This document shows, piece after piece, positions 3,985 to 23,968 of a DNA stretch of 64,000 nucleotides (its first letter is position 1; each line of letters begins with the position of its first letter). The stretch comes from a virus, in IMG/VR virus record IMGVR_UViG_3300032030_000058, positions 9,733 to 73,732 of that record. One strand, written 5' to 3'. The position numbers and the translations under genes were made by a program. The notes under the pieces are model-generated. The model had not been told where the DNA came from. It ran no database searches and saw nothing but the letters and a program-made list of their open reading frames with translations.

Positions 3985-4410
3985 TTATTTATCTCCTTCT
4001 GATTGAAATTTAACAAAATCTTTAATAGTTTCACTCATTGTAACCATGTTTTCAGATACTTCTTGTTTAAATTTTGCAATTTCAATCAATTTTTGTGAAA
4101 CTTCGGCTAATTTTTTGTCTACTTTTTCTTCATATTCTTTAAAAATATCTTCTTTTGTGGTGATATACCATTCTTTGCCGTCAAAAATAATAACATCACC
4201 TTGTTTTGGCTTCATCGCTCTTGAAGCATTTTTAATTTTTAAACCGATTGTTACCATTTTAAAATCCTCTTGTTTCATTTTAATATATTTTAATGGTAAT
4301 TGAAATATAAAAAAATAGAACGAATTGCTTCGCCCTATTCTTTTAGCCACTGGAGGAGAAACATAATCTACTTCCAATGTTATTTTATTGAATTTCCTCG
4401 TTTTCTTCAA
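3985..4410 (-). CDS. hypothetical protein
   Basis: 141 aa ORF in operon. Confidence 0.5.
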   Translation of the reverse strand: MKKTRKFNKITLEVDYVSPPVAKRIGRSNSFYFFIFQLPLKYIKMKQEDFKMVTIGLKIKNASRAMKPKQGDVIIFDGKEWYITTKEDIFKEYEEKVDKKLAEVSQKLIEIAKFKQEVSENMVTMSETIKDFVKFQSEGDK

Positions 4411-4852
4411 CTGTTTTCTTAGAAATCGAACTCATTAATTTTCCAAACTTCTCTAAATTGTCTAAACATGACTGTTTGATCTCTTGCAAAATCGATAATG
4501 CGCCCTTCTTGGTAGCATCACTTAATGCTGTATCATTCACAATATCGATAGTTTGTTTATCACATGCACCGATTAAATCCAAAATCTTTTGAGAAATCTC
4601 ACTTTGAGGAGCCTCTTGACCGGTAATGACCGCAGGATTGCTTTGTTTTTCTTGTTCCACAACATCAACGGAATCTTCTACTGGTTCTTCTTCTGGTTCT
4701 TCAATTTGTGGTTTGAAATAATCGTCTAAATCAGCACTAAAATCCTCTTCATCACATAATTGAGCGTGAAGAATTTTTTTTGCTCTTTCATCACCGTTAC
4801 GTGCTGCTTCACGAAGTTTTTGCATTTGTTCAAAAGGAATATAACGTGCCAT
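4385..4852 (-). CDS. acidic hypothetical protein
   Basis: 155 aa, Glu/Asp-rich. Confidence 0.5.
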   Translation of the reverse strand: MARYIPFEQMQKLREAARNGDERAKKILHAQLCDEEDFSADLDDYFKPQIEEPEEEPVEDSVDVVEQEKQSNPAVITGQEAPQSEISQKILDLIGACDKQTIDIVNDTALSDATKKGALSILQEIKQSCLDNLEKFGKLMSSISKKTVEENEEIQ

Positions 4853-4853
4853 A

Positions 4854-5405
4854 TTAATATTTCAACTCCCATTCATCATCATCTACACCCTCGTAGTATT
4901 CATCGAGAGCATCTTCTAGATTTTCAATATTTAATTGATTTAAAATTCTTTTAGGGACCATGCCTTTTTCGAGAATTAATTGCTTATCTTTTTCTGGAAG
5001 TGGTGCGCTTAATTGATCTTCTAGAAAATCAACCACATCTTGTTTAGAAAGATTAATGTTTCCAGTAAGATTTTCGCCATCTTTATTAATAACTTTAGAA
5101 ACATGTGATGGAACTTCGTCAACATCTTCATCATAACCGAGTTTTTTCCACTCAGGTTGGATGCCCAAAGTTTGTTTTAATTTTTCTTCGTAACTATCAT
5201 CAACACTATGAACATTTGCCATTCCTTGTTTCTTGACAAATATTTTTTCTTCATCGGTTAATTGTTCGCCTCTGCTGTGTTTTCTAAGTAAATCAGCCAT
5301 TTTGGCATTATTATCTTCGAAACTACCGCCACCAGATGCTTTATTTGCTCCAGTAGTAAATCTACCATTTTCGTCGTGATTTGGATTGCCTTTATTTTCT
5401 GTCAT
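4854..5405 (-). CDS. hypothetical protein with N-terminal GNPNHDENGRF motif
   Basis: Start placed at internal ATG 5403-5405 (MTENKGNPNHDENGRFTTG) preceded by AAGGAC; the longer ORF to 5444 overlaps the upstream gene. Confidence 0.5.
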   Translation of the reverse strand: MTENKGNPNHDENGRFTTGANKASGGGSFEDNNAKMADLLRKHSRGEQLTDEEKIFVKKQGMANVHSVDDSYEEKLKQTLGIQPEWKKLGYDEDVDEVPSHVSKVINKDGENLTGNINLSKQDVVDFLEDQLSAPLPEKDKQLILEKGMVPKRILNQLNIENLEDALDEYYEGVDDDEWELKY

Positions 5406-5409
5406 AATA

Positions 5410-5880
5410 TTAGTCCTTATTATATCTTTCTTCTTCAACTTCAATTACTTCTTCATCTTTGCCAAAATTCATTTTGAATAACTTTTCGGCTTCTTCTTTT
5501 TCTTTTTTGATTAAATCAGGACAAATAATATTTAAAGAAAATTCCATCATAGAATCTTTTTCTTCTGTATAATTTGCAGCACGATATCTTCTAAAAATAT
5601 CTTGTTCTAAAGAACAATGTCTAAAATCCCAATTATTAGAAATAGTAGCAAAATAATCTGCTTGTGCCATTAATTCTAAATCTTTAGCAAGAAATTCTAA
5701 ATTATCTTCAAAACCATCTTCACCTTTATCAAAATCTGGCAAATCGTTAAAATCTTGATGCAAAATTTCAACATCTTTATCGAGAAGTCCTTTAACTGCT
5801 TCTTCAATCTTTTCTAATGATTTTTCAATATCATCTTTTGAACGACCTTTTAATGGAATACTAACAAAAACTTTTTTCAT
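5410..5880 (-). CDS. hypothetical protein with scaffold-like C-terminal EEAEKLFKMNFG motif
   Basis: 156 aa; its C-terminal region matches the C-termini of the two scaffold-like proteins. Confidence 0.5.
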   Translation of the reverse strand: MKKVFVSIPLKGRSKDDIEKSLEKIEEAVKGLLDKDVEILHQDFNDLPDFDKGEDGFEDNLEFLAKDLELMAQADYFATISNNWDFRHCSLEQDIFRRYRAANYTEEKDSMMEFSLNIICPDLIKKEKEEAEKLFKMNFGKDEEVIEVEEERYNKD

Positions 5881-5882
5881 AA

Positions 5883-6161
5883 TTATTTCTTATCTCCTTT
5901 TTCAAAATTCATTCCAAATAATTTTCCTGCTTTTTTTGCTTCTTCATCAGAATCTATATATTCAGCGGTACTTGGTTCTTCCATAGCCTTTTGTAAGAAA
6001 GCAAAATGTGCGCTTTCTTCATCAATAATTTTCTTTAGACTTGGAATTAAATGCTCTTTGTTGTTTTCCTTCAACCAATTAATAAAATCTTTGTAATCAT
6101 TAATTGTATCTTCTTCGCCTTTTGCTAAGAATTCTAATTTTTTTAATAATTCTTTTTCCAT
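5883..6161 (-). CDS. hypothetical protein with scaffold-like C-terminal motif
   Basis: 92 aa; C-terminus DEEAKKAGKLFGMNFEKGDKK. Confidence 0.5.
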   Translation of the reverse strand: MEKELLKKLEFLAKGEEDTINDYKDFINWLKENNKEHLIPSLKKIIDEESAHFAFLQKAMEEPSTAEYIDSDEEAKKAGKLFGMNFEKGDKK

Positions 6162-6183
6162 AATGAAATACCTCTATGAAAAA

Positions 6184-6987
6184 TTATAACTTAATATAAT
6201 CCTTCATTCCATATTTTTTATATACTTCATTCACTGGTTTTAATAAATAATCTTTATCTCTATCGGTAAAATATTTTAAAATTTCCTTTTTATAATTTTT
6301 AGGAACACCATAAAACGCTTCTGCAATTGCACACGAAATGGCACATAATGTGTCTGTGTCCCCACCAATACTTACTGATGTTCTTACACAATCTTCAAAG
6401 TTTTTGCTAATTAAAAAACAGAAAATTGCTTGTGGAACTGTGTTTTGGCACGTTTCATTAAAATGATATGTTTGCACTAAATCATAATAATTAAAACTAG
6501 CAATCTCTGGATATTCTTTTTCTGCATATGCGCGTATATCCTCTTTATTTTTATTATGTAAAGCCATAAAAATACACATGGCTGTTACTTCAGCACCTTT
6601 AAGTCCTTCAGGATGGTCGTGAGTGCAACTTGTCACCCTCCACGACAATTTCTTTACTTCTTCTTCATCATTAGCAAAATATGCTACAGGACTGATACGC
6701 ATCGCTGCCCCATTTCCGAAACTGTTATATGGACGTGGATGTTTATCTACCAACCAACGAGCAAATGAACCGCCATATCCCCTACCAGGAAATAAACGGC
6801 CATATGTTTGTAACATATCAACAATCGTTTTGCCACGGTCCTTTAATAATGATGCGGCCACGGCACATGTCATAACCGTATCGTCCGTGAAAAAACATTT
6901 TTTATTAAAAATATCAAAGGCTTTCCATCTATGATTGTGAAATTCATAAATTGAGCCAACTGTATCACCAATAATTGCACCTAACAT
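6184..6987 (-). CDS. ADP-ribosylglycohydrolase (DraG/ARH family)
   Basis: N-terminal GAIIGDTVGS, FTDDTVMT, GNGAAMR and C-terminal GGDTDT motifs typical of PF03747; own promoter and AAGGAGGG RBS. Confidence 0.85.
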   Translation of the reverse strand: MLGAIIGDTVGSIYEFHNHRWKAFDIFNKKCFFTDDTVMTCAVAASLLKDRGKTIVDMLQTYGRLFPGRGYGGSFARWLVDKHPRPYNSFGNGAAMRISPVAYFANDEEEVKKLSWRVTSCTHDHPEGLKGAEVTAMCIFMALHNKNKEDIRAYAEKEYPEIASFNYYDLVQTYHFNETCQNTVPQAIFCFLISKNFEDCVRTSVSIGGDTDTLCAISCAIAEAFYGVPKNYKKEILKYFTDRDKDYLLKPVNEVYKKYGMKDYIKL

Positions 6988-7014
6988 TTTAACCCTCCTT
7001 TGGTAATCAATTAT

Positions 7015-7042
7015 ATATTATAGGAAAAATTAAAATGTGTCA
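7015..7042 (-). promoter_or_regulatory. minus-strand promoter (TTGACA-16-TAATAT) for the ADP-ribosylglycohydrolase gene
   Basis: TGTCAA at 7037-7042 on the plus strand = -35 on the minus strand; -10 at 7020-7015. Confidence 0.5.
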
Positions 7043-7050
7043 AGCACTTT

Positions 7051-7227
7051 TTACATTTTTTCATATTTTGGGCATGGTTTACTTTCGTAGTAAACTTCTT
7101 TTGGTTTTAGATCGAATTTTGAACAATAAGTCGCCAAAAAATTAACTAATCCATATTTACATGTCAAACATGGAATAGTTGATTTATCTGGTAATTGAAT
7201 TGTTAATTCTTCATTTTCATCAATCAT
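7051..7227 (-). CDS. small Cys-rich (zinc-ribbon-like) protein
   Basis: Start at ATG 7225-7227 preceded by AAGGAG; CxxC...CxxxC-like spacing (CLTC...CSK...CPKY). Confidence 0.45.
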   Translation of the reverse strand: MIDENEELTIQLPDKSTIPCLTCKYGLVNFLATYCSKFDLKPKEVYYESKPCPKYEKM

Positions 7228-8833
7228 ATGCTTCTCCTTCCTCATGTCGTGGCTTATAATAATACTCGTTTCCAAGTTTCTTTAAATCATTACCCATAGG
7301 TTTGTTTTTGTCACTTCCTAAGATAACTTCCATATCTAAATAATAGTGACCACCTTTTTTCTCTACTTTGGTAATTTTATATTGATATCCTCTTTGGATA
7401 ATCATTTCATTTTCTCCGTGTCCGCTCGCTGAATATGGCGCAACATACGCCATTTTTACACCCTTCGGACAATAAATATTAAACACAATATTACCTGTGT
7501 GATAACCAGTTCCTTTAGCCGCACCGCAACTGACAAATCCATTATCGGTCCAGGACATACCCACTAATGAATCGCGTTGTTCCTCTGTCATTTCTTCTAA
7601 TGACATTTTTTTACTAGATCCTGGTAAAACAAACATGCTGGTGTAATTGGCAATATATCTATTTAACCAAATATCTTCATCCCAGGTACATTTATCGATA
7701 GCATTAGTTAAATTATTAACACCTTCAGAAAATGTTTGCATTCCTTCATAACCAAAACTATATCCACCCGCATCATGCTTAATACCACGTAACGGTTTAT
7801 TAAAACGACTATATCCAGAACCGGTATAGGCCTTGATAACAGAATGTTCAGCACTACTCATAGAATCCCAATGTTTTTCAGCGTTTGAGCTAAAATGGCT
7901 ATACGCCGAATCAAAGTTCTTCATCCATGTTGCCTTGTCTTTTCTTTGTTTAGAATATGCCGCATTAGGATTTTGGAACTTAGCCTGGAATTCACGTGCT
8001 AAAACAACATTAGGATTATCATCGTTATAATTAACTAACTGTTCATTTAATGAATTACTAAGACTTTCAATGTTTTCTAATTCATCAATATACTTTAAGT
8101 TAATTTGTTCTTTAGCTTTTTCGTATTCTTGGCCTGCTTCTTCAAAAGCATCGAGTTTTTTAAGGAAAATTTTAGCCCTTAATTTTTCTTCGGCATTTGA
8201 ATTTTCATTATCTAAAATACCTTGATACCAGTCGCGCTTTTTCTGAATCGATCCACTTTCGGATAATTCTTTCCAATCGCTAGGATATTTTGTGGAATAA
8301 GCCCAAACACCGGAAAGGCCGTCCATATTATTGACGGCTAATTCCTGAGCAATATCCTTTTCAATATCCTTTTTCTGTTGCTTTAATATTTCAATTTGTT
8401 GTGTAATATGAATCTTCTCATTATCGATTGCGACCGCGTATAATAAAGCACGTAATTCTTCATCGGAAGCATTCTTTAACTTAACCGCATCGAAACCGAG
8501 CTGCTCATTTTTGAGTTCGCCCATCATATCTTCGCGTGACATCGAATCGAACACTTCTTGACGTTCTGGGTTCACTAAGTCTTTATTTGCAGCAACATAA
8601 TCAACAGCCTGTTGTTTTAATGCTTCTTTTTTTCTACCAATTAATGCAGATAATTTGCTTTGAACATCGTTATATTTTTCAGGTATTTCGAGCTTCATCA
8701 CACCCACATCATCGCCAGGAGCACTAGCAAATTGACCACCCTTGCCACCTGGGGCACCGGCTGGTTCATGATTAGGATTTCCTTTATTTCCTTCGTTTTC
8801 AACAACGACTACTTCTTCTTTGTTTTCTTCCAT
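7220..8833 (-). CDS. ADP-ribosyltransferase, Alt-like (C3/VIP2 R-S-E class domain in C-terminal half)
   Basis: GYSRFNKPLR (Y-x-x-x-N-x-x-LR arginine region), MAYVAPYSA, and GENEMIIQRGYQYKI (ExE motif) align with iota/C3-type ART motifs; N-terminal KGNPNHE...GGQF motif. Confidence 0.75.
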   Translation of the reverse strand: MEENKEEVVVVENEGNKGNPNHEPAGAPGGKGGQFASAPGDDVGVMKLEIPEKYNDVQSKLSALIGRKKEALKQQAVDYVAANKDLVNPERQEVFDSMSREDMMGELKNEQLGFDAVKLKNASDEELRALLYAVAIDNEKIHITQQIEILKQQKKDIEKDIAQELAVNNMDGLSGVWAYSTKYPSDWKELSESGSIQKKRDWYQGILDNENSNAEEKLRAKIFLKKLDAFEEAGQEYEKAKEQINLKYIDELENIESLSNSLNEQLVNYNDDNPNVVLAREFQAKFQNPNAAYSKQRKDKATWMKNFDSAYSHFSSNAEKHWDSMSSAEHSVIKAYTGSGYSRFNKPLRGIKHDAGGYSFGYEGMQTFSEGVNNLTNAIDKCTWDEDIWLNRYIANYTSMFVLPGSSKKMSLEEMTEEQRDSLVGMSWTDNGFVSCGAAKGTGYHTGNIVFNIYCPKGVKMAYVAPYSASGHGENEMIIQRGYQYKITKVEKKGGHYYLDMEVILGSDKNKPMGNDLKKLGNEYYYKPRHEEGEAYD

Positions 8834-8839
8834 AGCACT

Positions 8840-8868
8840 ATTATAAAAAAATAAATCGGTTTATTCAA
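8840..8868 (-). promoter_or_regulatory. promoter TTGAAT-17-TATAAT positioned for a leaderless ADP-ribosyltransferase mRNA
   Basis: On the minus strand the -10 TATAAT ends 6 nt before the ATG at 8833; no SD is present; the -35 overlaps the terminator hairpin of the upstream gene. Confidence 0.4.
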
Positions 8869-8878
8869 CCGAGTTATT

Positions 8879-9112
8879 TTATTTCATTGCGTTTTCAATT
8901 CTTTCGGCTTCTAACAAGTCTTCGTAAAGGCCGTCCATGTTTTCATTTTCACTTTTGAAGTATTCTAATACATAACTAGGAATTTCAGATGCGTCACCTA
9001 CAACAATATAGTGATCTTTGATGTCTCTATCCCATTTGTCTGGATTTGCCTCCATCCATTCCCAGGCAATATATTCTTTACTTAACATTTCGTCCCATTC
9101 TTTTTCGTTCAT
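8879..9112 (-). CDS. acidic hypothetical protein
   Basis: 77 aa, own promoter (TTGACA at 9157-9162 on the minus strand) and GGAGAA RBS. Confidence 0.5.
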   Translation of the reverse strand: MNEKEWDEMLSKEYIAWEWMEANPDKWDRDIKDHYIVVGDASEIPSYVLEYFKSENENMDGLYEDLLEAERIENAMK

Positions 9113-9171
9113 ACTTTTTTCTCCTTCTGCATATATATTATTCTATTTATGCAAATGTGTCAATAGGTTTT

Positions 9172-10152
9172 TTAATATTTTATTTTATTCCAGGGAATTT
9201 CTTCCCAATGTGTTAACGGAATGGGATATTTTTTATTATCGTGTTGGAAATTCAATTGAGTGTTCATTTGTCCTTGCTTGTTAAGGGAACTGGATAAATA
9301 AATTTTTAATCCATTTTTATCTACAACCGTTTTTCTAAAAAAGAAAGGTTTACCTGTTTTATGATTTCGTCTCACTATTTCATTTCTATCTGAGAATCCA
9401 TGAGTCAATCTTTCTCTTTGATCGTTTGCGATTTCTCTTAAATCTCGCTCACTACCAAATTCATTAAATATTGCTTCTTTTAGTGCTGTTGAATTATAGT
9501 GCATTAACTTCATGCCATAAATTTGTTCAGCAATATTACCGTTTTGAGCGATGTTAATCAATGTATCTCTGTCGTCATTTAATAAATTTAAACACATAAA
9601 CATAAATGTGTTGGTTCCATGATTTTTCATATCATGTTTTGTGTTCAAAAATTGAGCATCACCACGGTCCCTTAATAAATGTAAAGGAATAGATGGATTA
9701 TCATAAGAATTAAAATCTCTTAAACGAATATATTTAAAATCTATTTTTAAATAACGAGTTTTTCCGGTCTTTGGATTATGCAAAACAACACGATAATCAA
9801 TTCCTCTATTTTCGTCAATTCTTTCGTCACCAAATCCTTCGCTGACTTTTTCATAACCAATATTATACAATCTAGTTAATGTTGAATCGATATTTTGAAT
9901 AAACAAAGGCATTGCAATTAATTTATCAAAAACTCGATCAGCGTCGTCTTCTGGCTTAATATCTAACGGATTATTTTTGCTAGAGTTAAAAATTGTTTTA
10001 TTGCCAACTTTTATAAGTTTTGTTTTCCAAGAACTTTTGCCTTCATATTGACCGGTATCATCATTATAATCTTTAGGAATAAATTGACCGCCATTAGGCT
10101 GCCCGGCATTAGCATGTAATCTGCCAGTTGCATCTTGAACTGCCATATGCAA
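9172..10152 (-). CDS. hypothetical protein with N-terminal NGGQF motif
   Basis: 326 aa ORF. Confidence 0.5.
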   Translation of the reverse strand: MHMAVQDATGRLHANAGQPNGGQFIPKDYNDDTGQYEGKSSWKTKLIKVGNKTIFNSSKNNPLDIKPEDDADRVFDKLIAMPLFIQNIDSTLTRLYNIGYEKVSEGFGDERIDENRGIDYRVVLHNPKTGKTRYLKIDFKYIRLRDFNSYDNPSIPLHLLRDRGDAQFLNTKHDMKNHGTNTFMFMCLNLLNDDRDTLINIAQNGNIAEQIYGMKLMHYNSTALKEAIFNEFGSERDLREIANDQRERLTHGFSDRNEIVRRNHKTGKPFFFRKTVVDKNGLKIYLSSSLNKQGQMNTQLNFQHDNKKYPIPLTHWEEIPWNKIKY

Positions 10153-10155
10153 CTC

Positions 10156-11058
10156 CTACATTAAAGATTCAAAAATTTCTGGATTGCTGGTCATGATTTC
10201 TTCTAATTCATCATCAGTAACTAAATCTGCATCATCACCAAACATTTTTTTAGCATTAGCCTTAGCAATTTCTGCTTGTTTTTCATTGAATTTGCCAGTT
10301 TTACCCCATGGTTTGCTTTGTTCCACTTTGACTTCTTCTTTGACTTCTTCTTGAACAGGAGCAGCTTGTTTCTTAGACTCAATAACTTTTTCAAGTTTCT
10401 TCTTCGCTTCACCTAAAGTTTCAATGCCACCATGTTTAGCACTGATAACATTTTGTTGTTGTTTGCTATCGTGTGCTTTTTCAATAGCGGCTTTTTCTGC
10501 TTGTGATTTAGCACCGGACTTGGTTTGCCAGTTTTCGGATTCGCCCTTGAATTCGCCTAATTTTGAGTCGTATTCCTTGGCCATATCCCAAACTGTTTTA
10601 GCACTGACCTTGGTAGATAAGCCTTCAGTGATAACCTTACCACCTTTTGTATACCATTTGTCTTTGTATTTGTCCCAATACGCACCAGATTTTGAACCGA
10701 ATTGTTGTTCGACATCTTTAATATAAACAACTCCATCTTCGTTTCCGCCAGTTAATGTTGGAGGAACAGTTTTGCCTCTGCTTGGGCCATATTTTGGATC
10801 AATGGATTGACCATTGACGGATTTATATGTGAATCGGCCTCCACGGTCACGGGGCTGAGAAGATTCTGGATTTTCTGCTTGTCTAATTTTGCCGTTTTCA
10901 CGAGTTGTTCTTGTATTAGAATCACCTTTTTTAAAAGGATGACCACCACCAGTAGATTCTTTATACTCGCCAAAACCTGTATTAAGACCTTCAGTTTCTT
11001 CCATTTTTTTAACGATATGCTTTTTAGCATCTTTACTTGGTTTATATTTTTTTGCCAT
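10156..11058 (-). CDS. basic low-complexity protein, possible internal virion/DNA-associated protein
   Basis: 300 aa, Lys/Gly-rich, RDRGGRFTYK motif near N-terminus, AKKMFG near C-terminus. Confidence 0.5.
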   Translation of the reverse strand: MAKKYKPSKDAKKHIVKKMEETEGLNTGFGEYKESTGGGHPFKKGDSNTRTTRENGKIRQAENPESSQPRDRGGRFTYKSVNGQSIDPKYGPSRGKTVPPTLTGGNEDGVVYIKDVEQQFGSKSGAYWDKYKDKWYTKGGKVITEGLSTKVSAKTVWDMAKEYDSKLGEFKGESENWQTKSGAKSQAEKAAIEKAHDSKQQQNVISAKHGGIETLGEAKKKLEKVIESKKQAAPVQEEVKEEVKVEQSKPWGKTGKFNEKQAEIAKANAKKMFGDDADLVTDDELEEIMTSNPEIFESLM

Positions 11059-11119
11059 AATAAATTACCTCATTCATAGTTATTTTACTAATAAATGATT
11101 TAATACACAATAAATAAAA

Positions 11120-12136
11120 TTATTTATATCGCCAAATATATCCACCTGCTTGTTTATATTTTCCATCACAACAAAATTTTATACTGCTTCTAGATGCACC
11201 AGTTTGTCTATGAGCCTCAATAGTGCTTTCAAATTCAGCAATAAAATTCATATTCATATCATATTGTATAACAGGCCTACGAACATCTATTAAAACTAAA
11301 GGTTCAATATGTAATGGATAATTATCATTTTCTTTAAATTTCCAAACATAATTTTTATATCTTTTTCTATTTCCGTAGCAACACTGTCTTAAACAACTTT
11401 CAGATGTATTCCCAAAGTATTTTACAACGGTATATACATTTGGCCATTCTCTTATAAAATAACCATTTGCATCATATTGCAAAACAGGTTTTCCAAACTC
11501 ACCAAATCTACCTTTTAACCAAGTGTGATGTCCTTTTTTAAATTCAGTTCTAGGACATAAATGTTTTCCTTTATGCATTTTGCTAATTAATTCTTTTGTA
11601 TCTTCGCTATGTTTGTGTGTATGGTGTTTACTACCCTTGTTCTTCTCACCCATTTTTCTACGAGCTTCTGCACTAATTTTATGCCCGGTCGCACCACTTC
11701 CGCCTTCTGTTCCGTTATATCCATGCTTAAAGGAATCAAACAACGCAATATAGTATTTTTCACGTTCATTTGCCAATTCAGGCGTTTCAATTCCTTCTTC
11801 CAACACTTCATGTTCAAATTTATCCCAGCCATATTTCTGAATTGCGGCCCAAAATTTCTTTTGGCCTGGTTGATTATAACCGTGGCCGTTTCTGCCCCAA
11901 CGCGAACGAATAAAACGCTGATTGGTGATGCCAATATAACATTTACCGTTTATTTTATTTGTGTGTTTATAAACAGTCCAGGTCGGAACATGAACAACGC
12001 CGCGTTTTTTCTTAATGATGCCGTAATTGGATAGAACGTGTTTTAATTGGTCCTCTTTCAAATTAAAAAACATAGCAGTATCTGCACGACTGTGTTTCTC
12101 TACTATGTAATAATTGTATAGTTCTTCTCTTGTCAT
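11120..12136 (-). mobile_element. free-standing GIY-YIG homing endonuclease with NUMOD-type DNA-binding repeats
   Basis: GKCYIGIT...R...YGWDKFEHEVLE...EREKYYIALFDS...GYNGTEGG GIY-YIG core, followed by His/Lys-rich repeats and two tandem ~50 aa repeats (PVLQYDANGYFIREW... / PVIQYDMNMNFIAEF...). Confidence 0.9.
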
Positions 12137-12207
12137 AAAATAAAATGCTCCTGTCCGATGCTCAGCGGGCCGGCCAGCACCGAATGGAGCATCTCTTTTA
12201 TATATTA

Positions 12208-12236
12208 ATTATAACATACCATATATATTAATGCAA
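12208..12236 (-). promoter_or_regulatory. promoter TTGCAT-17-TATAAT for the GIY-YIG endonuclease gene
   Basis: -35 at 12236-12231 and -10 at 12213-12208 on the minus strand, followed by a GC-rich leader hairpin. Confidence 0.55.
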
Positions 12237-12237
12237 A

Positions 12238-12273
12238 TAAAAAAGAGAGGAACTCTTATAACATTCCTCTCTA
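12238..12273 (-). terminator. terminator downstream of the capsid gene
   Basis: AGAGAGGAA...TTCCTCTCT stem plus T-run on the minus strand. Confidence 0.65.
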
Positions 12274-12291
12274 ATTTTTCAATTCAACCAA

Positions 12292-13602
12292 CTATGCTGC
12301 TGGAGTGGTGAATGCTGCAGTTGAGATAACTGTAACTTTACCATTGTGAGCACCGAAGAGTTTGTAACCAGTTGAAGCAGTTAAGATACCGCTTAAATCT
12401 TGGTATGGAAGCACTTCGATTGCAGCTCCTGGAACACTGTCACCAACTGCTGGAATGCTTGCAGAAGCAATAGCGTAAAGTTTTGTGACTAATAATCCAG
12501 GTCTTAATGGACTAATCCATGTTCCAGTGATCATGTTCATGCTTGCGTCATAGGAGAAGTTGAGTGTTGGTTCAACAGCTGCGACGTCAGAAACGTGAGC
12601 ATAAACACCAATTCTCTTATTATCTAAGACGAATAAATCGTGATAGATACGAACGTTCACTTTGTAACCATCGAAATCTTGGACAACGCCAGGACCGAAT
12701 GTCTTAACGTGTTCATATTTAACGACGTGAGCAACTTTGGATGGATCGCAGACGATAAAGTCGATTTGTTTATTGCCTGTATCCCATGTGTAACCACCGT
12801 TACCAGAGTTGAGTAATTTAATCATAGTTCTGAAACGTGAATTTGGAACAGTGATTAATTTTCTACCTTCGTATTCTTCGATTTTGAAACTAATGTTACC
12901 TTTGAATTCAGAAGCATCGATAGTTCTGATTAATTCATTAGTATTTCTTAATTTGTTTCTGAAAGATGTAGAACAGAAGATAACTTGTCTTTCTGCTGGA
13001 ACTTCAGCGTTATCTAAAGTTTCGAAAGCAAGATTTAAGTGATAAATAGGACCATTTAATGTGTATCCTAATTGACCAGCAACTGGATCAGCGATTGCTG
13101 TGCTGTTAACTGTGCCAGCGTATTCTGCTAATTTTGAGAACACATAAGCATCAACTTCAGGAACAACGTTAACTCTGTTGGTTTCTTTTAAAGCCATAGC
13201 GACTGCTAAACCATCAGTTTCTTCATCGTCCATTAATTCGATTCTTAATTGAATAGCACGATCAACTCTGAGTGTGAACTCTTCCCACACAACAGCGATA
13301 TCGCCTTCTGGATAACCGTAACCTTCGCCTGCTGCATAAGGTGTAGCGGAACCGGCTGCGTAATCACCAGAAACTGGGACATTAGCACGGCCATAGTCTT
13401 TTAAACCAGCACCCATGAATTTTGCGACTTTAACGGTCTTTGTGCCTGTGAATTTTAAGAAGTCTTTTTCACCATCTAAGATAGAGGAACGAGCTTCTGC
13501 TACATATACTTCATCCCAGGCTTTTGTAGCGTATTTTTGAATAAGAGCAATAGCATTACCTGCCATAATATTTTTTCCTTCCTCCGATTTAACGGAACTC
13601 AT
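12292..13602 (-). CDS. major capsid protein (HK97-fold, phi29-like with C-terminal Ig-like domain)
   Basis: 436 aa; sits directly downstream of two acidic scaffold-like genes, has its own strong terminator, and has a Thr/Ser/Val-rich C-terminal ~100 aa that looks like a BIG2/Ig-like extension. Confidence 0.6.
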   Translation of the reverse strand: MSSVKSEEGKNIMAGNAIALIQKYATKAWDEVYVAEARSSILDGEKDFLKFTGTKTVKVAKFMGAGLKDYGRANVPVSGDYAAGSATPYAAGEGYGYPEGDIAVVWEEFTLRVDRAIQLRIELMDDEETDGLAVAMALKETNRVNVVPEVDAYVFSKLAEYAGTVNSTAIADPVAGQLGYTLNGPIYHLNLAFETLDNAEVPAERQVIFCSTSFRNKLRNTNELIRTIDASEFKGNISFKIEEYEGRKLITVPNSRFRTMIKLLNSGNGGYTWDTGNKQIDFIVCDPSKVAHVVKYEHVKTFGPGVVQDFDGYKVNVRIYHDLFVLDNKRIGVYAHVSDVAAVEPTLNFSYDASMNMITGTWISPLRPGLLVTKLYAIASASIPAVGDSVPGAAIEVLPYQDLSGILTASTGYKLFGAHNGKVTVISTAAFTTPAA

Positions 13603-13660
13603 TATGGAAATATGCTATGTTTCTTTTTTGTGGCTTATCAAGTTTAACTTATAATATATA

Positions 13661-14059
13661 TTATAACTTAAACAGTTTTTTTGCTTCTTCCCATTCTTCT
13701 TCGTCGTCGTCACCGTTTTCGGATTCTCCTTCCTCAGTGACTTCTTCTTCATCAGAATCGGATTTAGCATCTTCAAGTTTGTTTTCGAATTCTTCTTTAG
13801 ATTCGCCAGGACCAATTTCTTTAGCGGCTTCAGCTTCTTCAGCGGTTACGCCTTCAGCACCAGCACCTTCTGGACCTGCATCTTTTTCGAAGTCTTCGTC
13901 AAGTTCTAACCCGATAGCGCTGCATAATGTGCCTAAATCTTCTTTAGACATTTTACCTTCACGGAAGAGAGGCCATAAAATACCATCTGCGATATCTTCT
14001 GGGGTTAAACCTGCATCTTGAAGTTTTTGCATCATTTCTTGGATTTCTTCATTATTCAT
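13661..14059 (-). CDS. acidic scaffold-like protein
   Basis: 132 aa, highly acidic, C-terminus EEWEEAKKLFKL. Confidence 0.5.
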   Translation of the reverse strand: MNNEEIQEMMQKLQDAGLTPEDIADGILWPLFREGKMSKEDLGTLCSAIGLELDEDFEKDAGPEGAGAEGVTAEEAEAAKEIGPGESKEEFENKLEDAKSDSDEEEVTEEGESENGDDDEEEWEEAKKLFKL

Positions 14060-14077
14060 GTGTGATTTACTCCTTAA

Positions 14078-14839
14078 TTAATGAAACTTCAACTTAAATA
14101 ATTTTTCTGCTTCCTCTTCTTCACTCATTTGAGGCGCAGGTTTTTGCTCATTACCGAGCGCTTTAATACGTGTCACAGGAGCTGGGGCTGGGGCTGGGGA
14201 AGCAGCTTCCGCTTCTTTCTCAGCATTAGCTTCGCCTTTCCATTCAGGATGGGTTTCTAATTCGGAGTTAATATTATCTAATGTAACTTCAAGGCCTTTT
14301 CCTTTAAGAATTAATTTGACATCCTCGTAACGATCCGCATCAACACCGGATTGCATAAGAGCGATAGTTTCCGACATATCAGTAAGTTTTTTGTCTGTGT
14401 CTGATTTTTCTTGTTCCCAAGACGCTTTATCAGCATCATACATTTCTTTCTGTGTGTCGTATCTTTGTGCATTAGCAACTAAAGCATCAAGTTCTTCTTC
14501 ATTTTTGACACCATAACGGCCATAAATGTAGTTAAACGTTTTCTCTCTAGTTTTAACACGAGTATCACCAACTAACTTATCCACATCATCCTGAGTGAAA
14601 GTTTTAATGGATGTGTCGATAGCACCGTTTTCCTCGACTAATTCTGTTTCTGCTGGTTGGGACACACCATTAGCTGCATCTTCTTCAGTATAAACAGCGC
14701 CAGCTTCGGCTTCATTTTCCTCTGCGGAAGTGGCAGCAGGATCGGATGTTTCAGTCATTTCTGGTGATTTGGAAACAACTTCTTCATCTGTTTTTTCTTC
14801 TTCGCCTTCCAAAATTGGTTTTTTTTCTAAATCTTCCAT
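14078..14839 (-). CDS. scaffolding protein (acidic, coiled)
   Basis: 253 aa, Glu-rich, C-terminus EEEEAEKLFKLKFH, immediately upstream of the capsid gene. Confidence 0.55.
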   Translation of the reverse strand: MEDLEKKPILEGEEEKTDEEVVSKSPEMTETSDPAATSAEENEAEAGAVYTEEDAANGVSQPAETELVEENGAIDTSIKTFTQDDVDKLVGDTRVKTREKTFNYIYGRYGVKNEEELDALVANAQRYDTQKEMYDADKASWEQEKSDTDKKLTDMSETIALMQSGVDADRYEDVKLILKGKGLEVTLDNINSELETHPEWKGEANAEKEAEAASPAPAPAPVTRIKALGNEQKPAPQMSEEEEAEKLFKLKFH

Positions 14840-15077
14840 GTTTAACCTCCTGGAACGAGTAATTAACGTAAAAATAATTTACTAGAATTATATTAGCATG
14901 TATTTTTCGTGTGTGTAAATAAAAAATGATAAGGTTTTGTGCGTGGGCGTGAAGAATAACAATATGCTGGAAAAAAATGTTGACTTGGGTGGGCCGAAAA
15001 ATTTGTGGAGGCATTTAGAAAAAACCCAATCGGCAAAAACCCCCTCAACACCCCTCCCCCTACCTGATGTCCTCAAA

Positions 15078-15104
15078 CAAAAAATGACTAGCGTCCTAGT
15101 CATA
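15078..15104 (-). terminator. rho-independent terminator (minus-strand direction) in the late-operon upstream region
   Basis: Perfect 8 bp stem ATGACTAG-cgtc-CTAGTCAT followed by a T-run on the minus strand. Confidence 0.5.
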
Positions 15105-15283
15105 GTTCGAGAGGTTGCAGCCTCTTAGTTATAAAGGAGGATGTTCATTATATGTCCGAAATGAAAACCTACAGCTTTAGTATACAGCATCGATTCGTTA
15201 CCGTGCAAGAAAATTCCATCACCAGACAAGTTGGATTGCCCATAGAGCTTTTGAAAAAAATCGCACTATACTAAAAATAATTG

Positions 15284-15312
15284 TTGACAACATATATTAA
15301 TGGATATATAAT
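15284..15312 (+). promoter_or_regulatory. early sigma-A-type promoter P1 (TTGACA-17-TATAAT)
   Basis: -35 15284-15289, -10 15307-15312, AT-rich UP element aaaataattg. Confidence 0.7.
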
Positions 15313-15343
15313 TTAGGTAGTTAAAAACAAAGGAGCAAAAAAT

Positions 15344-15727
15344 ATGACACTAAATGAACTCTTAAAAAAACTTAGCACCATTAAAAAATATCGCTGGTTC
15401 CATGTGGTTTACACTAGCACTATCAATGGTTACAAAAAAACCACTACAAGCATTGTTAGGTTTGCTGACTATAAAAAGGCTGATGGCACCATGAACGAGC
15501 CTAAAAAGACCAATGTAAGCGAGTATATCATGCATTGTGAAAATACCGGCAATACCAATTTACAAGTATTCGTTACCAAATGCAAAAACCATAAGCCACA
15601 TAGTGTTTATGAGTATATGGGCAAAGAGATTAGTAAAGAGGAATATTATGAGGGTTCTCACAAAAAGCCATCTTCACCATCTCAATGTTTCTATCTCACC
15701 ATTGACAACATTGTAGCAATTTACTAA
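15344..15727 (+). CDS. early hypothetical protein
   Basis: Promoter 15284-15312, AAGGAG RBS, 127 aa. Confidence 0.6.
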   Translation: MTLNELLKKLSTIKKYRWFHVVYTSTINGYKKTTTSIVRFADYKKADGTMNEPKKTNVSEYIMHCENTGNTNLQVFVTKCKNHKPHSVYEYMGKEISKEEYYEGSHKKPSSPSQCFYLTIDNIVAIY

Positions 15728-15740
15728 GGGGGTTATAAAA

Positions 15741-15914
15741 ATGTTCAAAGTTGGAGATACCATTAAAATTATCTACATGGAAGGAGAGCCACAATATAGT
15801 GGCAAAATAGGCACCATTACTCACATTGACGATATTGGTCAATTACATGGGACTTGGGGTGGTTGTGCACTAATTCCAAATGTGGACGAGTTCCAAAAAA
15901 TTGAGAGCCGATAA
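15741..15914 (+). CDS. small early protein (57 aa)
   Basis: AAGGGGG RBS 6 nt upstream of ATG; followed by terminator 15904-15930. Confidence 0.5.
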   Translation: MFKVGDTIKIIYMEGEPQYSGKIGTITHIDDIGQLHGTWGGCALIPNVDEFQKIESR

Positions 15915-15930
15915 CATCGGTTCTTTTTTT
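15904..15930 (+). terminator. intrinsic terminator
   Basis: CCGAT-aac-ATCGG hairpin plus T8. Confidence 0.6.
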
Positions 15931-15978
15931 TAGCATCAATCGACCGTGCAAGAAGGAGATGGCGGCGGATGTCGATGG

Positions 15979-15996
15979 TTCCTAAAATCTTAGGAA
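15979..15996. promoter_or_regulatory. palindromic operator TTCCTAAAATCTTAGGAA upstream of P2
   Basis: Near-perfect 18 bp inverted repeat ~20 bp upstream of the -35. Confidence 0.5.
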
Positions 15997-16016
15997 AAAT
16001 TTTCTATAAATAATTG

Positions 16017-16045
16017 TTGACAATATATATACAATAATATATAAT
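16017..16045 (+). promoter_or_regulatory. early promoter P2 (TTGACA-17-TATAAT)
   Basis: -35 16017-16022, -10 16040-16045. Confidence 0.7.
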
Positions 16046-16072
16046 GGTAGTGTAGATAAGGAGATAAAAACT

Positions 16073-16198
16073 ATGTTCGCTAAAACCTATGTAATTATGC
16101 CATTGGAGTGGGATTATGATAATGACCACCATAATATGATAAGATACCTATCTAATCAAGGTATCATTGTTCCTAGTGATATTGTTCGCTTGGATTAA
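16073..16198 (+). CDS. small early ORF (42 aa), possibly the 5' part of a frameshifted gene
   Basis: Promoter 16017-16045, AAGGAG RBS; a further 41-codon ORF follows in the +1 frame (16213-16338) without an RBS before the terminator. Confidence 0.35.
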   Translation: MFAKTYVIMPLEWDYDNDHHNMIRYLSNQGIIVPSDIVRLD

Positions 16199-16212
16199 TT
16201 GTGTGGCTCTAT

Positions 16213-16338
16213 GGAGTGTTCAAAGGGCTATGCGGTTGGCACCATTACAAAACTTAAAAAGGAATATCCATATGTCAAGTTTGGACTATTCGAGGGAGCA
16301 ACTTGGGGTTCACTGACCATTGTTCAAGAGTTCTAATT
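16213..16338 (+). pseudogene. possible downstream fragment of a frameshifted early gene
   Basis: ORF MECSKGYAVG... in a different frame from 16073-16198, no SD, same transcription unit. Confidence 0.25.
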
Positions 16339-16367: not shown

Positions 16368-16452
16368 ATGCGATGCTGGACCGTGCTAAAAAATCCGATG
16401 GCGGATCCAGGATGAAGCTCACCATCAATGTTTGTTAACTTATAATTTTGTG

Positions 16453-16481
16453 TTGACAATATATATAAAATGATATATACT
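16453..16481 (+). promoter_or_regulatory. early promoter P3 (TTGACA-17-TATACT)
   Basis: -35 16453-16458, -10 16476-16481. Confidence 0.65.
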
Positions 16482-16505
16482 ATAATTAGAAAGAAGGAAC
16501 AAATC

Positions 16506-16931
16506 ATGAGTGAAAAACAAAAGCAAGAAGCCATTAAAAGAATGAGACTTCTACAAATTATGAATAGCGTCATTACCGACTTTAAAAATAATGGTCGTAT
16601 TTATTATAGTGAAAGGCAGAATTCAATGTTTCCAGCCACACTGTATTGGTTAGACAATAAACCTGAATGGGTTGCAATGGTCAAGGACTTTGAAAAAAGA
16701 AATCATGCCCTTGTCTATCATGCTCAATTAACTCACACACAAGTGGGAGACTTGCTATCGTTATTATATGTTTCTAATGACGAGTCAAGCTGGGAAGAGG
16801 ACCGCGAATGGATAGTCAATGAAGATGGCTTGATGTATTCAATGGTCATTAATCTTGACGACGACACATTCAGCGACATGGGGACCATTCAAGTTCGACC
16901 AGCGATGGGAGGTGTAGTAAGAACGGCGTAA
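16506..16931 (+). CDS. early hypothetical protein
   Basis: Start at ATG 16506 preceded by GAAGGAAC RBS; promoter 16453-16481. Confidence 0.6.
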   Translation: MSEKQKQEAIKRMRLLQIMNSVITDFKNNGRIYYSERQNSMFPATLYWLDNKPEWVAMVKDFEKRNHALVYHAQLTHTQVGDLLSLLYVSNDESSWEEDREWIVNEDGLMYSMVINLDDDTFSDMGTIQVRPAMGGVVRTA

Positions 16932-17042
16932 CAGCCGCTCTTTTTTTTAGCTTCAATTACCGTGCTAATACAGTGGATCCAGATTCAGATGCGGATCGTC
17001 TTCTGGCGTTCGAATCTTTTTAAAAAAATTTAATTTTAGGTA

Positions 17043-17071
17043 TTGACAATATATATAAAATAATATATACT
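17043..17071 (+). promoter_or_regulatory. early promoter P4 (drives ncRNA candidate)
   Basis: -35 17043-17048, -10 TATACT 17066-17071; 27/29 identical to P3. Confidence 0.65.
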
Positions 17072-17077
17072 ATATAT

Positions 17078-17289
17078 GTAAGATGAATAAACAAGTGTTG
17101 GGAAGATGATGTTCTCTTACAGCGAATAACCAAAGACTGCTATAGTGTCATAATAGGCGTAAGGTGGACGAAACCCTGGTTGGTTGGGCCGACGACTCGT
17201 ATGGTGTTTGCTACGTCACAACGTTAAATAGAACGTAGAACATAACTTAATAGTTTGGGAGAAGGTGGTTCGAAACACCTTCTTTTTTT
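17078..17289 (+). ncRNA. candidate ~210 nt non-coding RNA (promoter to terminator with no ORF and no RBS)
   Basis: Canonical early promoter 17043-17071 followed by no SD or ORF longer than 8 codons, internal hairpins (GTAAGA/TCTTAC, CTACGT/ACGTAG), intrinsic terminator 17259-17289. Confidence 0.45.
17259..17289 (+). terminator. intrinsic terminator ending the ncRNA candidate
   Basis: GAAGGTG-gttcgaaa-CACCTTC plus T7. Confidence 0.65.
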
Positions 17290-17393
17290 GCACCTGATAA
17301 CGCAACTGGATCTAAATCGCCGCATCAGATGAACCGTGCTAAACAGCATCATCTGGAATTCGGATGGAGCTGGGAAATTCTTCAAAAATAATG

Positions 17394-17422
17394 CTTGACG
17401 ATATATATACAATAATATATAA
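17394..17422 (+). promoter_or_regulatory. early promoter P5 (TTGACG-17-TATAAT)
   Basis: -35 17394-17399, -10 17417-17422. Confidence 0.65.
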
Positions 17423-17451
17423 TATAAGTAGTTAATAGGAGGAATACTAAT

Positions 17452-17868
17452 ATGACCATTAGACAAACATTATCAAACTACGTTATAAGTGAAATGACCA
17501 ACGAGGAACTATTCACTGAACTATCAAATTCTTTACCATTCAAGAGCAAAAGAGAGCATACTAAATGGTTATCGTTAAAGGGCACACAACAATGGTTGAC
17601 CATGACCGAAAAAGTTCTTAAACGAGCCAATACGCAAGTTTACCATGTCAAATTGGAACGTGGTTCACGTATTGAAATCAATGGTACAGGTTTCTATTCA
17701 TTTGAGGACTATTACACAAGTATCAAACTTGAACCAAATGAGAGCCATCGTTACATCAAGGAACAAACCATTGACCATATTCGTCAACAAATTGCTACTA
17801 GTATCCTTAAAAATGTCAAGAGATGGAAAGATATTGGTATTGATATGGCTGACCTAAGAGTGTTGTAA
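17452..17868 (+). CDS. early hypothetical protein
   Basis: Promoter 17394-17422, AGGAGG RBS, 138 aa. Confidence 0.6.
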   Translation: MTIRQTLSNYVISEMTNEELFTELSNSLPFKSKREHTKWLSLKGTQQWLTMTEKVLKRANTQVYHVKLERGSRIEINGTGFYSFEDYYTSIKLEPNESHRYIKEQTIDHIRQQIATSILKNVKRWKDIGIDMADLRVL

Positions 17869-23933: not shown

Positions 23934-23968
23934 TAGAAAAGAGCTGATCATCTCAGCCCTTTTTTATT
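23934..23968. terminator. bidirectional terminator between convergent genes
   Basis: GCTGA-tcatc-TCAGC with an A-run upstream and a T-run downstream. Confidence 0.55.

Follow-up and report, generated by a model that had tools for sequence, protein, structure and literature searches.

Four otherwise unrelated proteins encoded in the late head operon of an uncultured phage carry the same short peptide at or near their carboxy termini. The operon, which is on the minus strand, lies in a stretch of 64,000 nucleotides taken from IMG/VR virus record IMGVR_UViG_3300032030_000058 (positions 9,733 to 73,732 of the record; hereafter the window), and the four carriers are the head scaffolding protein, a small acidic protein of 132 amino acids (aa) encoded between the scaffold and coat genes, and two accessory proteins of 156 and 92 aa (p156 and p92). 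The shared peptide is real, non-random and ancient, and the scaffolding protein almost certainly uses it as its functional tail. The best explanation, to which we assign a probability of roughly 0.55, is that the peptide serves as a hook by which the scaffold tail would bind the coat protein, and that the same hook is borne by a partner and by accessory proteins, which would be enclosed with it. This explanation combines sequence comparisons with the analogy to phage 80alpha described below.

The consensus ..EEA.K-L-F-[KG]-[LM]-x-F was found at the C-terminal ends of all four proteins (Table 1), and in the scaffold and the 132-aa protein its position is terminal or nearly so. The five open reading frames (ORFs) pointed out in the earlier note on this DNA, and their C-terminal sequences, were exactly as described there. 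The claim that all five have the peptide in common held for four of them (253, 132, 156 and 92 aa) but failed for the 300-aa protein encoded at 10156-11058: its copy is not conserved, scored less than 4 bits in the scan described below, and is replaced in the closest homologs by IKEMLGDEYD, AKQELGDEYD and IKQELGSEYD. A KLFG sequence in the coat protein (12352-12363, YKLFGAHNG) has no acidic helix and is part of the coat C-terminal domain, and was therefore not counted; coat homologs keep Y-[KHY]-[LI]-[FY]-G near their own C-terminus.

When all six frames of the 64 kb were searched, the pattern A.K[LM]F matched five real ORFs and one sequence spanning a stop codon, and the longer pattern K[LM]F[KG][LM][NK]F matched the scaffold, p156 and p92 only. 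Four C-terminal occurrences of A.K[LM]F were observed, compared with 0.2 expected from residue shuffles. Patterns of this type had been picked post hoc, after inspection of the data, and a hidden Markov model (HMM) of 13 positions, trained solely on the tails of scaffold homologs from outside the window, was built as an independent test. Applied to 1458 six-frame ORFs of the window and nine related loci (the loci are designated here by L numbers), the HMM recovered ten scaffolds and, in addition, 10 non-scaffold matches of at least 6 bits, compared with 1.2 expected from shuffles. All 10 are located no more than 20 residues from the C-terminus, and they fall into three families: the small acidic protein, the 153-156-aa family that includes p156, and a 176-aa protein of L001. 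The best score obtained with shuffled sequences (1458 ORFs, 20 replicates) was 12.6 bits, compared with an observed 15.5 bits. A wider scan of 60 non-redundant loci (728 kb, 3908 six-frame ORFs) returned, at 7 bits or more, only scaffolds, small acidic proteins, members of the 153-156-aa family and the 176-aa protein of L001; these matches were at most 19 residues from the C-terminus, except in the p156 of L020 (20 residues). At 6.1 bits two spurious 40-aa ORFs appeared. Because the five DNA copies differ at synonymous sites (GCA/GCC, AAA/AAG, TTA/CTG, TTT/TTC), the shared feature, and the selection acting on it, are at the level of the peptide. A DNA repeat or regulatory element was ruled out by the same codon differences, and no Rfam family was found in 4000-16000.

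The protein encoded at 14078-14839 is a head scaffolding protein. Its residues 53-181 match phrog_2303 (E=2.9e-6), and its gene is located two genes upstream of the major head protein gene (phrog_422); scaffold, 132-aa protein and coat follow one another in this order in the window and in all large-phage loci examined. A homolog search yielded 221 sequences, and the motif was counted in 120 listed homologs, down to 39% identity. The peptide, whose presence in homologous scaffolds had been proposed as a check in the earlier note, proved to be conserved: [ST]EE[ED]xA..[KR]-h-F-[KRD]-h (h, hydrophobic) was found 0-4 residues from the end in 117 of the 120 listed homologs, and the remaining three were apparently truncated or had divergent C-termini. 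It is the most conserved stretch of the scaffold tail. An LGNE box, visible in all listed tails, precedes the motif by about 10 residues, and L228, G229 and N230 were invariant in an alignment of 60 sequences. The AlphaFold2 model computed from this alignment predicts a long helical hairpin with disordered ends. The acidic N-terminus (residues 1-80) is disordered, helices 83-109 and 114-164 have a predicted local distance difference test score (pLDDT) above 90, further helices reach to residue 211 and are followed by a disordered linker (212-239), and a terminal, acidic amphipathic helix (240-248, EEEEAEKLF) stops at Phe248, after which the non-helical hook KLKFH is predicted.

Smaller relatives of about 35 kb, roughly half as long and with coat identities of 33-40%, have scaffolds of 175-215 aa that end in the variant ..E[EK][DE]xA[ML][KR][LM]FG[LIV].. 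The scaffolds of 1358, P40 and RG-TP1 end in the loosely similar sequences ..AAFGLKQ, ..IKNAFK and ..AAMGLPPEK, and with the scaffolds examined from these three phages no partner gene was found. Searches of 50,697 phage records by blastn with the scaffold-to-coat DNA and by tblastn with the scaffold and a partner protein of 70 aa gave no cultured relatives. No solved-structure relatives of the scaffold or the coat were found by sequence, and a phmmer search of all PDB chains with the scaffold gave two non-significant matches, neither of them to a phage protein.

The second carrier begins with a helical domain of some 55 residues, continues with an acidic linker and ends in the motif; all large-phage loci examined have its gene between those of scaffold and coat. 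In many of the 35-kb relatives an acidic protein of 68-81 aa, ending in ..EAxKLFGMK[LF].., is encoded between scaffold and coat, and its N-terminal domain is recognisably that of the 132-aa protein. The pair of scaffold and small acidic protein, both with the motif, is kept down to 33% coat identity. Because it persists in relatives at 33-40% coat identity, the pair with its common tail must be old. Outside the motif no homology between the 132-aa protein and the scaffold was detectable (hhalign probability 4%), and the one BLASTP alignment with the scaffold tail was gapped and weak (E=0.004 in a database of 7 sequences). An origin of the 132-aa protein by tandem duplication of the scaffold found no support in these comparisons. 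Of the view that both acidic proteins are scaffold-like, the part concerning 14078-14839 stood, whereas 13661-14059 is better described as a conserved small acidic partner than as a second scaffold. That the carriers are otherwise unrelated was borne out as well: the motif is the only clearly shared segment among the proteins of the window.

The coat protein offers a candidate docking site. Its ORF is listed from 13602, but the true start is probably the ATG at 13566, 12 codons downstream, which gives MAGNAIA; the coat homologs all begin with MAGNAIA or MANxIxL. Conservation of the coat extends to residue 1, no delta domain being present, and its matches in cultured phages are distant, with less than 30% identity (Listeria P35/P40, Lactococcus 1358 and Clostridioides phages). 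The 5-residue cores of scaffold and small acidic protein are more alike within a genome than between genomes (permutation p <5e-5 with 28 genomes and 3e-4 within the large-phage group, in tests that ignore phylogeny). Three genomes (L023, L091 and L092) have Asp in place of Lys directly behind the Phe, in the scaffold and in the small acidic protein alike (..LFDL, ..LFDM, ..KLFDLD), and in exactly these three the coat N-arm residues 32-35 read ANQK, compared with a conserved G[ED][KR]D elsewhere (GEKD in the window). The coat alignment has 485 columns, of which 25 set this clade apart, and only one of these, with Asp35 replaced by Lys, reverses a conserved charge; the other 22 genomes all have Gly32. 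Among the smaller phages of the FG type, 12 of 13 genomes have Lys or Arg at coat column 35. If the hook and coat residue 35 formed a salt bridge, a change of the hook from K to D together with D35K in the coat would be expected. The charge swap, as indirect evidence from sequence, and the precedent of the 80alpha scaffold and CpmB (PMC5644958) both point to the scaffold tail as a coat-binding element, as had been proposed. Binding of the motif to the coat is likely, and from this single covariation event and the analogy we infer docking at the coat N-arm.

Further observations, apart from the motif, concern the coat gene and its downstream flank. In L084 (8687-10846; JAIKVY010000187.1), and also in L060, the coat gene is split after about 143 codons by an ORF for an HNH-type endonuclease, and in L084 a group I intron-like RNA (RF00028, 36.8 bits, E=2.6e-7, not reaching the gathering score of 50) lies just before the second coat exon. 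Differing free-standing genes that resemble those of homing endonucleases have a hot spot directly behind the coat gene, on its downstream side. This site is occupied by the GIY-YIG/HNH gene in the window (11120-12136), by DUF7487 genes in L009 (12782-14203) and L015 (7089-8390) and by a DUF559 gene in L005 (12762-13367), and is empty in L001, L002, L007 and L012.

The accessory carriers have only the motif in common. In p156 an alpha/beta domain (residues 1 to about 120) is followed by the motif-bearing helix and an acidic tail (AlphaFold2 pLDDT 87.7); the helix (121-135) is predicted to stop at the motif Phe135 and is followed by non-helical KMNFG and by the acidic tail, modeled with low confidence. 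With p156 itself no Pfam match was obtained even at E values up to 1, and the top Foldseek match in the PDB, the 2-deoxyribosyltransferase 6evs, was weak (E=8.5e-3, TM 0.45-0.50). Two remote relatives, P0231 and P0242, pass the 22-bit cut-off of PF14359 (DUF4406) with 26.9 and 24.8 bits, respectively. Sequence and model together suggest a remote likeness of the p156 domain to DUF4406 and nucleoside 2-deoxyribosyltransferases. Residues 1-125 have 171 remote relatives among 1.8 billion representative proteins, most of them stand-alone proteins of 100-140 aa, and the hook was absent from all 149 of these relatives that were examined, none exceeding 4.6 bits. Of the 13 motif residues of p156, 10 are identical to those of the scaffold, including K-L-F-K-h-x-F. 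The p156 family, with 83 members detected, keeps E[KR]E.A[EK]K[LI][FW][KG] at a fixed position followed by an acidic tail, and the contigs examined belong to this phage group. In L088 and L089 the sequence ERERA is present in both the scaffold and p156, which is one suggestive case of matched change.

The 92-aa protein is helical, with a Pfam match to Rubrerythrin (ferritin-like) that is below the cut-off (E=0.025). Four homologs were found, and the motif copy is conserved in all of them. It fails in the HMM by a 2-residue insertion (AG), and its core KLFGMNF is one residue apart from the KLFKMNF of p156. Related proteins of L009 (93 aa) and L089 (98 aa) end in ..AASILFKINLKGE and ..AASIMFKIHL, respectively. 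A third family, with members of 176 aa (L001) and 184 aa (L009, weakly annotated as DUF5662), ends in ..DEASKLFKMDLKED and ..DKMKAIFGLKEDKEND. All three families are accessory, being absent from L002, L003, L005, L012, L015 and L016. In the window p92 and p156 directly follow immunity-like genes, and they could be cargo, accessory proteins of the immunity type or modulators of assembly. Homologous proteins of 163-172 aa in L012 (19021-19539) and L002 (17780-18271) combine a short N-terminal D[NK]HD..GRF motif with the ending ..KKKKLFGGK or ..KKKYFGGK, possibly a weak C-terminal hook.

The following mechanism would account for these observations. The shared peptide would be the coat-binding end of the scaffolding protein in this capsid lineage: a short acidic amphipathic helix predicted to halt at the conserved Phe, then a basic-hydrophobic hook, [KR]-h-F-[KR/G]-h; in many cases the fourth position past the Phe is hydrophobic as well. 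During procapsid assembly the peptide would most likely dock on the inside of the HK97-fold coat protein, at N-arm residues 32-35 or close to them. The small acidic protein would bind the same site and would either be a co-scaffold or modulate scaffold occupancy. The DUF4406-like 153-156-aa, the ferritin-like ~92-aa and the 176-184-aa families have acquired the element, at or near their C-termini, in one subclade; it would tether these proteins to the interior of the assembling shell, so that they become enclosed in procapsids. Because the tail probably docks on the coat N-arm, the peptide may act as a natural address label for the interior of the forming capsid. Delivery of the tagged proteins into procapsids, and with it encapsidation of the accessory proteins, is plausible.

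Several observations weigh against this mechanism or parts of it. The charge swap happened once, in a single clade of three genomes, the covariation of the FG or FK hook with coat residue 35 coincides with the deepest split in the tree, and the permutation tests take no account of phylogeny. Because the link thus consists of one evolutionary event plus one deep split, coat binding is likely rather than demonstrated. In the 156- and 92-aa proteins 6-20 further residues come after the motif. Only 35 of the 83 p156-family members reach 6 bits with the large-phage scaffold HMM, and the commonest form in the family is ..AKKLWGE[KR]AL (WG 36, FK 18, WK 16). The remote relatives of p156 that have no hook already possess the N-terminal half of the helix (PD..KKE.E). 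Because these hookless relatives have the charged helix after a 'PD' turn, the likeness of p156 to the scaffold appears to be in part inherited; relative to them, what is new in p156, by sequence, is the hydrophobic hook alone. Covariation between scaffold and p156 is weak (exact p=0.039, n=8 genomes, about 4 clades).

Taking these points into account, other explanations were weighed. It is possible, if unlikely, that the motif does bind the coat but that the accessory carriers compete with the scaffold and thereby tune assembly (nucleation, stoichiometry, capsid size or scaffold release) instead of being cargo. SaPI1 CpmB competes with the 80alpha scaffold in this manner. The small acidic protein has the layout of CpmB (helical N-terminal domain, linker, hook), and its universal conservation beside the scaffold fits an assembly role better than that of an optional cargo. 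The 156-, 92- and 176-aa families, however, are accessory and missing from six related loci, their genes sit among toxin- and immunity-like genes away from the scaffold, and the predicted fold of the 156-aa protein is enzyme-like. We consider it less probable still that the motif binds another common partner, such as the portal, the MuF-like minor head protein, the scaffold itself (by homotypic helix pairing) or a host chaperone or protease. The link between motif and coat was drawn at the level of sequence, a portal and a weak MuF-like protein are encoded in the window, and scaffolds of other phages reportedly touch portals too. It is nevertheless in the coat N-arm that the coordinated charge reversal was found, and coat binding is the only atomic precedent found for a terminal helix-plus-hook. 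The copy number of scaffolds, which is in the hundreds, also suits the coat better than the portal.

That the resemblance of the 156- and 92-aa proteins arose by convergence or chance, with the hook-like residues serving the fold or oligomerisation of each protein, appears improbable. AT-rich phages commonly encode amphipathic helices rich in Lys and Glu, a charged C-terminal helix past the 'PD' turn is already present in the remote relatives of the 156-aa domain, the WG form that predominates in the family scores poorly with the scaffold HMM, and the pLDDT of the p156 helix (about 80-89) is compatible with packing on the domain. Chance does not easily explain, however, the 10/13 identity with the scaffold and a score of 15.5 bits compared with a shuffle maximum of 12.6, the restriction of the motif across 728 kb to head-module proteins and to C-termini, or its presence on three independent non-scaffold folds. 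Finally, packaged proteins of T4 and of giant phages have common short sequences that are recognised by a protease, and the peptide might be a prohead-protease cleavage site or a degron rather than a binding element. This is scarcely credible here: no prohead protease was detected with PHROGs and Pfam among the structural and head genes of the window, the coat lacks a delta domain, conservation beginning at its first residue, and with the motif 0-4 residues from the scaffold end, cleavage would take off almost nothing.

The coat-binding hook is best compared with that of 80alpha, whose helix-and-hook is a closer model than the P22 helix-turn-helix or phi29; P22- and phi29-like systems were those named in the earlier note. 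In cryo-electron microscopy the last 16 residues of the 80alpha scaffold form an 11-residue amphipathic helix and a 5-residue hook with the sequence RIIK, which bind the coat N-arm and the A/P cleft, and CpmB of SaPI1, a small, dimeric and otherwise unrelated protein, shares the hook element (PMC5644958). As in 80alpha gp46 and CpmB, the motif described here is an amphipathic helix at the extreme C-terminus followed by a hook of the type basic-hydrophobic-hydrophobic-basic (RIIK compared with KLFK, RMFK and KMFR). The remaining tail is disordered in both systems, the coat N-arm is the contact in 80alpha and the predicted one here, and in both the element recurs on a second small, non-homologous protein with an N-terminal domain of its own (here the 132-aa protein). 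The two differ in that no sequence homology to the 80alpha proteins or to any solved chain was detectable (the PDB chain set should include the 80alpha entries 6B0X and 6B23), and in that the second carrier is here phage-encoded and conserved with the scaffold, whereas CpmB comes from a parasitic island. Enzyme-like and ferritin-like carriers are found here, and the binding predicted here has been seen in 80alpha. The likeness is an analogy of mechanism and not a sign of family membership.

Encapsulin cargo-loading peptides are similar in that a short C-terminal peptide on unrelated folds would tether its carriers to the interior of an HK97-fold shell, and a ferritin-like protein (by a weak match) is among the carriers here. 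The present system differs, being that of a tailed phage with portal and terminase in which the peptide is the scaffold's own tail and loading is predicted; its sequence presumably also differs from the encapsulin cargo-loading consensus. In T4 a short capsid targeting sequence sends unrelated proteins, including the ADP-ribosyltransferase Alt, into the prohead for injection, and the window too has an ADP-ribosyltransferase in its head module. However, in T4 the signal is at the N-terminus, attaches to the scaffolding core and is cut off by the prohead protease, whereas the motif here is C-terminal, no prohead protease was detected in the window, and the ADP-ribosyltransferase has another, N-terminal motif. 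In P22 (PMC9962691) the C-terminal coat-binding element of the scaffold loads foreign proteins into procapsids when attached to them, which is what the earlier note proposed to occur naturally here. The P22 element is a helix-turn-helix domain, larger than a short helix-plus-hook and not related to it by sequence, and the cargo loading is man-made.

A second motif, this one N-terminal, was found on larger proteins encoded downstream of the coat gene. The signature G-N-P-[NY]-H-x(2-10)-G-[KRQE]-[FY] has 34 matches in the 60 loci, compared with 0.3 expected from shuffling; every match is encoded downstream of the coat gene and on its strand, and nearly all lie within the first 30 residues. The C-terminal domains behind it vary and include ADP-ribosyltransferase, ATLF-like metallopeptidase and zeta-toxin-like domains as well as many unknown ones. 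A literature search for the string 'NPYHD' found no paper. From its sequence context the motif looks like a trafficking tag of polymorphic, capsid-delivered effectors. If there is a general cargo tag in the module, the C-terminal peptide is not the sole candidate.

In the window the signature is carried, among others, by the 537-aa ADP-ribosyltransferase. This protein matches a PHROG named 'Bxa ADP-ribosyl transferase'; its only significant Pfam match is ADPrib_exo_Tox (residues 314-499), Flo11 being below the cut-off, and no MuF domain was found in it with Pfam. As with the MuF polymorphic toxins Bxa and Apk2 (PMC11699363, PMC5576092), an ADP-ribosyltransferase, a small ORF and an ADP-ribosylglycohydrolase are encoded together in the head-morphogenesis region. 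The order of genes in 6184-8833 mirrors the Bxa/Bsi/BAH set of one toxin and two immunity proteins in a Bacteroides prophage (PMC11699363). In contrast to those toxins the transferase is here without a MuF domain, a separate, weak MuF-like ORF being found at 23964-24761, and for the carriers of the C-terminal motif downstream of the triad no counterpart is described in the Bxa paper. Because a common N-terminal module, varied toxin domains and a Bxa-like gene order occur together, the module looks like a set of virion-delivered effectors. We put forward, with considerable reserve, that two tags might operate in one HK97-fold capsid. The C-terminal hook would load small enzyme-like and ferritin-like proteins at the N-arm site of the coat, and the N-terminal GNP[NY]H..G[KR]F would load toxins (ADP-ribosyltransferase, ATLF-like metallopeptidase and zeta-toxin-like kinase) for injection. 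In that case the C-terminal hook would correspond, in phages, to the cargo-loading peptides of encapsulins and would bridge scaffolds and encapsulin cargo in evolution.

The selection of non-structural proteins for enclosure in the head and injection is, to our knowledge, known in very few phage systems. The main examples are the T4 targeting sequence and the ordered incorporation of Dar proteins in P1. If a scaffold tail of 12-15 residues suffices to position unrelated proteins on the inner wall of the capsid, the virion cargo of uncultured gut and rumen phages could be predicted by a rule that is simple and portable, the engineered cargo loading of P22 would have a natural precedent, and there would be concrete support for the proposed link between phage scaffolds and encapsulin cargo. 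The possibility that phage-encoded, cargo-like proteins co-assemble in procapsids has been raised in a 2025 preprint (10.1101/2025.06.18.659913). Irrespective of cargo, two points would be new: that in the phrog_422 lineage the scaffold and a conserved mini-protein appear to have one coat-binding hook in common, and that a contact is predicted between the residue after the hook Phe and coat Asp35.

The source phage, of about 80 kb, is of a gut or rumen type with about 35% G+C. Related contigs of 70-84 kb come from rumen, gut and digester metagenomes, and some of them were binned with Lachnospiraceae or Clostridia genomes. All motif carriers are products of the late head operon, from the stretch that separates the coat gene from the genes for head completion and the tail, and the window also has primase and helicase genes beside the portal and large terminase. 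The positions of the features are listed in Table 1.

Table 1. Features of the window that bear on the shared C-terminal peptide, with selected neighbouring genes (positions in the window unless a locus is named)
Feature	Size or residues	Position	Strand	Match or remark
Head scaffolding protein, acidic	253 aa	14078-14839	-	phrog_2303
Scaffold motif SEEEEAEKLFKLKFH	residues 239-253	14081-14125	-	
Scaffold LGNE box		14147-14158	-	
Small acidic partner, very acidic	132 aa	13661-14059	-	ORF list
132-aa protein motif EEWEEAKKLFKL	residues 121-132	13664-13699	-	extreme C-terminus
p156, motif carrier	156 aa	5410-5880	-	
p156 motif EKEEAEKLFKMNF	residues 127-139	5464-5502	-	then 17 more residues
p92, motif carrier	92 aa	5883-6161	-	
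p92 motif EEAKKAGKLFGMNF	residues 73-86	5904-5945	-	then 6 more residues
AKANAKKMFG in the 300-aa protein	residues 265-274	10237-10266	-	rejected copy
Major capsid protein	436 aa as listed	12292-13602	-	phrog_422, E=2.3e-53
Free-standing GIY-YIG/HNH homing endonuclease	338 aa	11120-12136	-	
300-aa protein	300 aa	10156-11058	-	no identity assigned
326-aa protein	326 aa	9172-10152	-	no identity assigned
77-aa protein	77 aa	8879-9112	-	no identity assigned
ADP-ribosyltransferase	537 aa	7220-8833	-	PF03496
N-terminal motif, ADP-ribosyltransferase	residues 18-35	8729-8782		
Cys-rich ORF	74 aa	7051-7275	-	
ADP-ribosylglycohydrolase	267 aa	6184-6987	-	PF03747
ORF with N-terminal GNP[NY]H-type motif	196 aa	4854-5444	-	
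N-terminal motif, 196-aa ORF		5358-5390		
Degenerate N-terminal motif forms		10081-10110 and 10831-10857		
N-terminal motif examples elsewhere		L016:14074-15066, 15328-16236, 16396-17469		
MuF-like protein		23964-24761	same strand as head operon	weak match
Portal		24800-26572	same strand as head operon	
Large terminase		35066-36610	same strand as head operon	

In most large-phage loci examined the variable, cargo-like cluster ends, directly before the head-completion and tail genes, with a conserved protein of 155-230 aa (4385-4852 in the window, L001:17650-18120, L088:9304-9915). It has no family match, was not seen within the L005 stretch, and has the N-terminus M-x-[RFY]-[FIY]-P-x-[DE]-[KQ]-[IM]-[KQ]-[KRS]-L-R-E-A-A-[KR]-N-G-D. 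Farther along the window a 736-aa fusion of polynucleotide kinase/phosphatase and RNA ligase (PNKP-RNA ligase) is encoded at 28986-31196 (phrog_8238, E=1e-200), and adjoining it, at 31256-32731, is the gene of a 491-aa SPFH/Band-7 (flotillin-like) protein, which is unusual for a phage.

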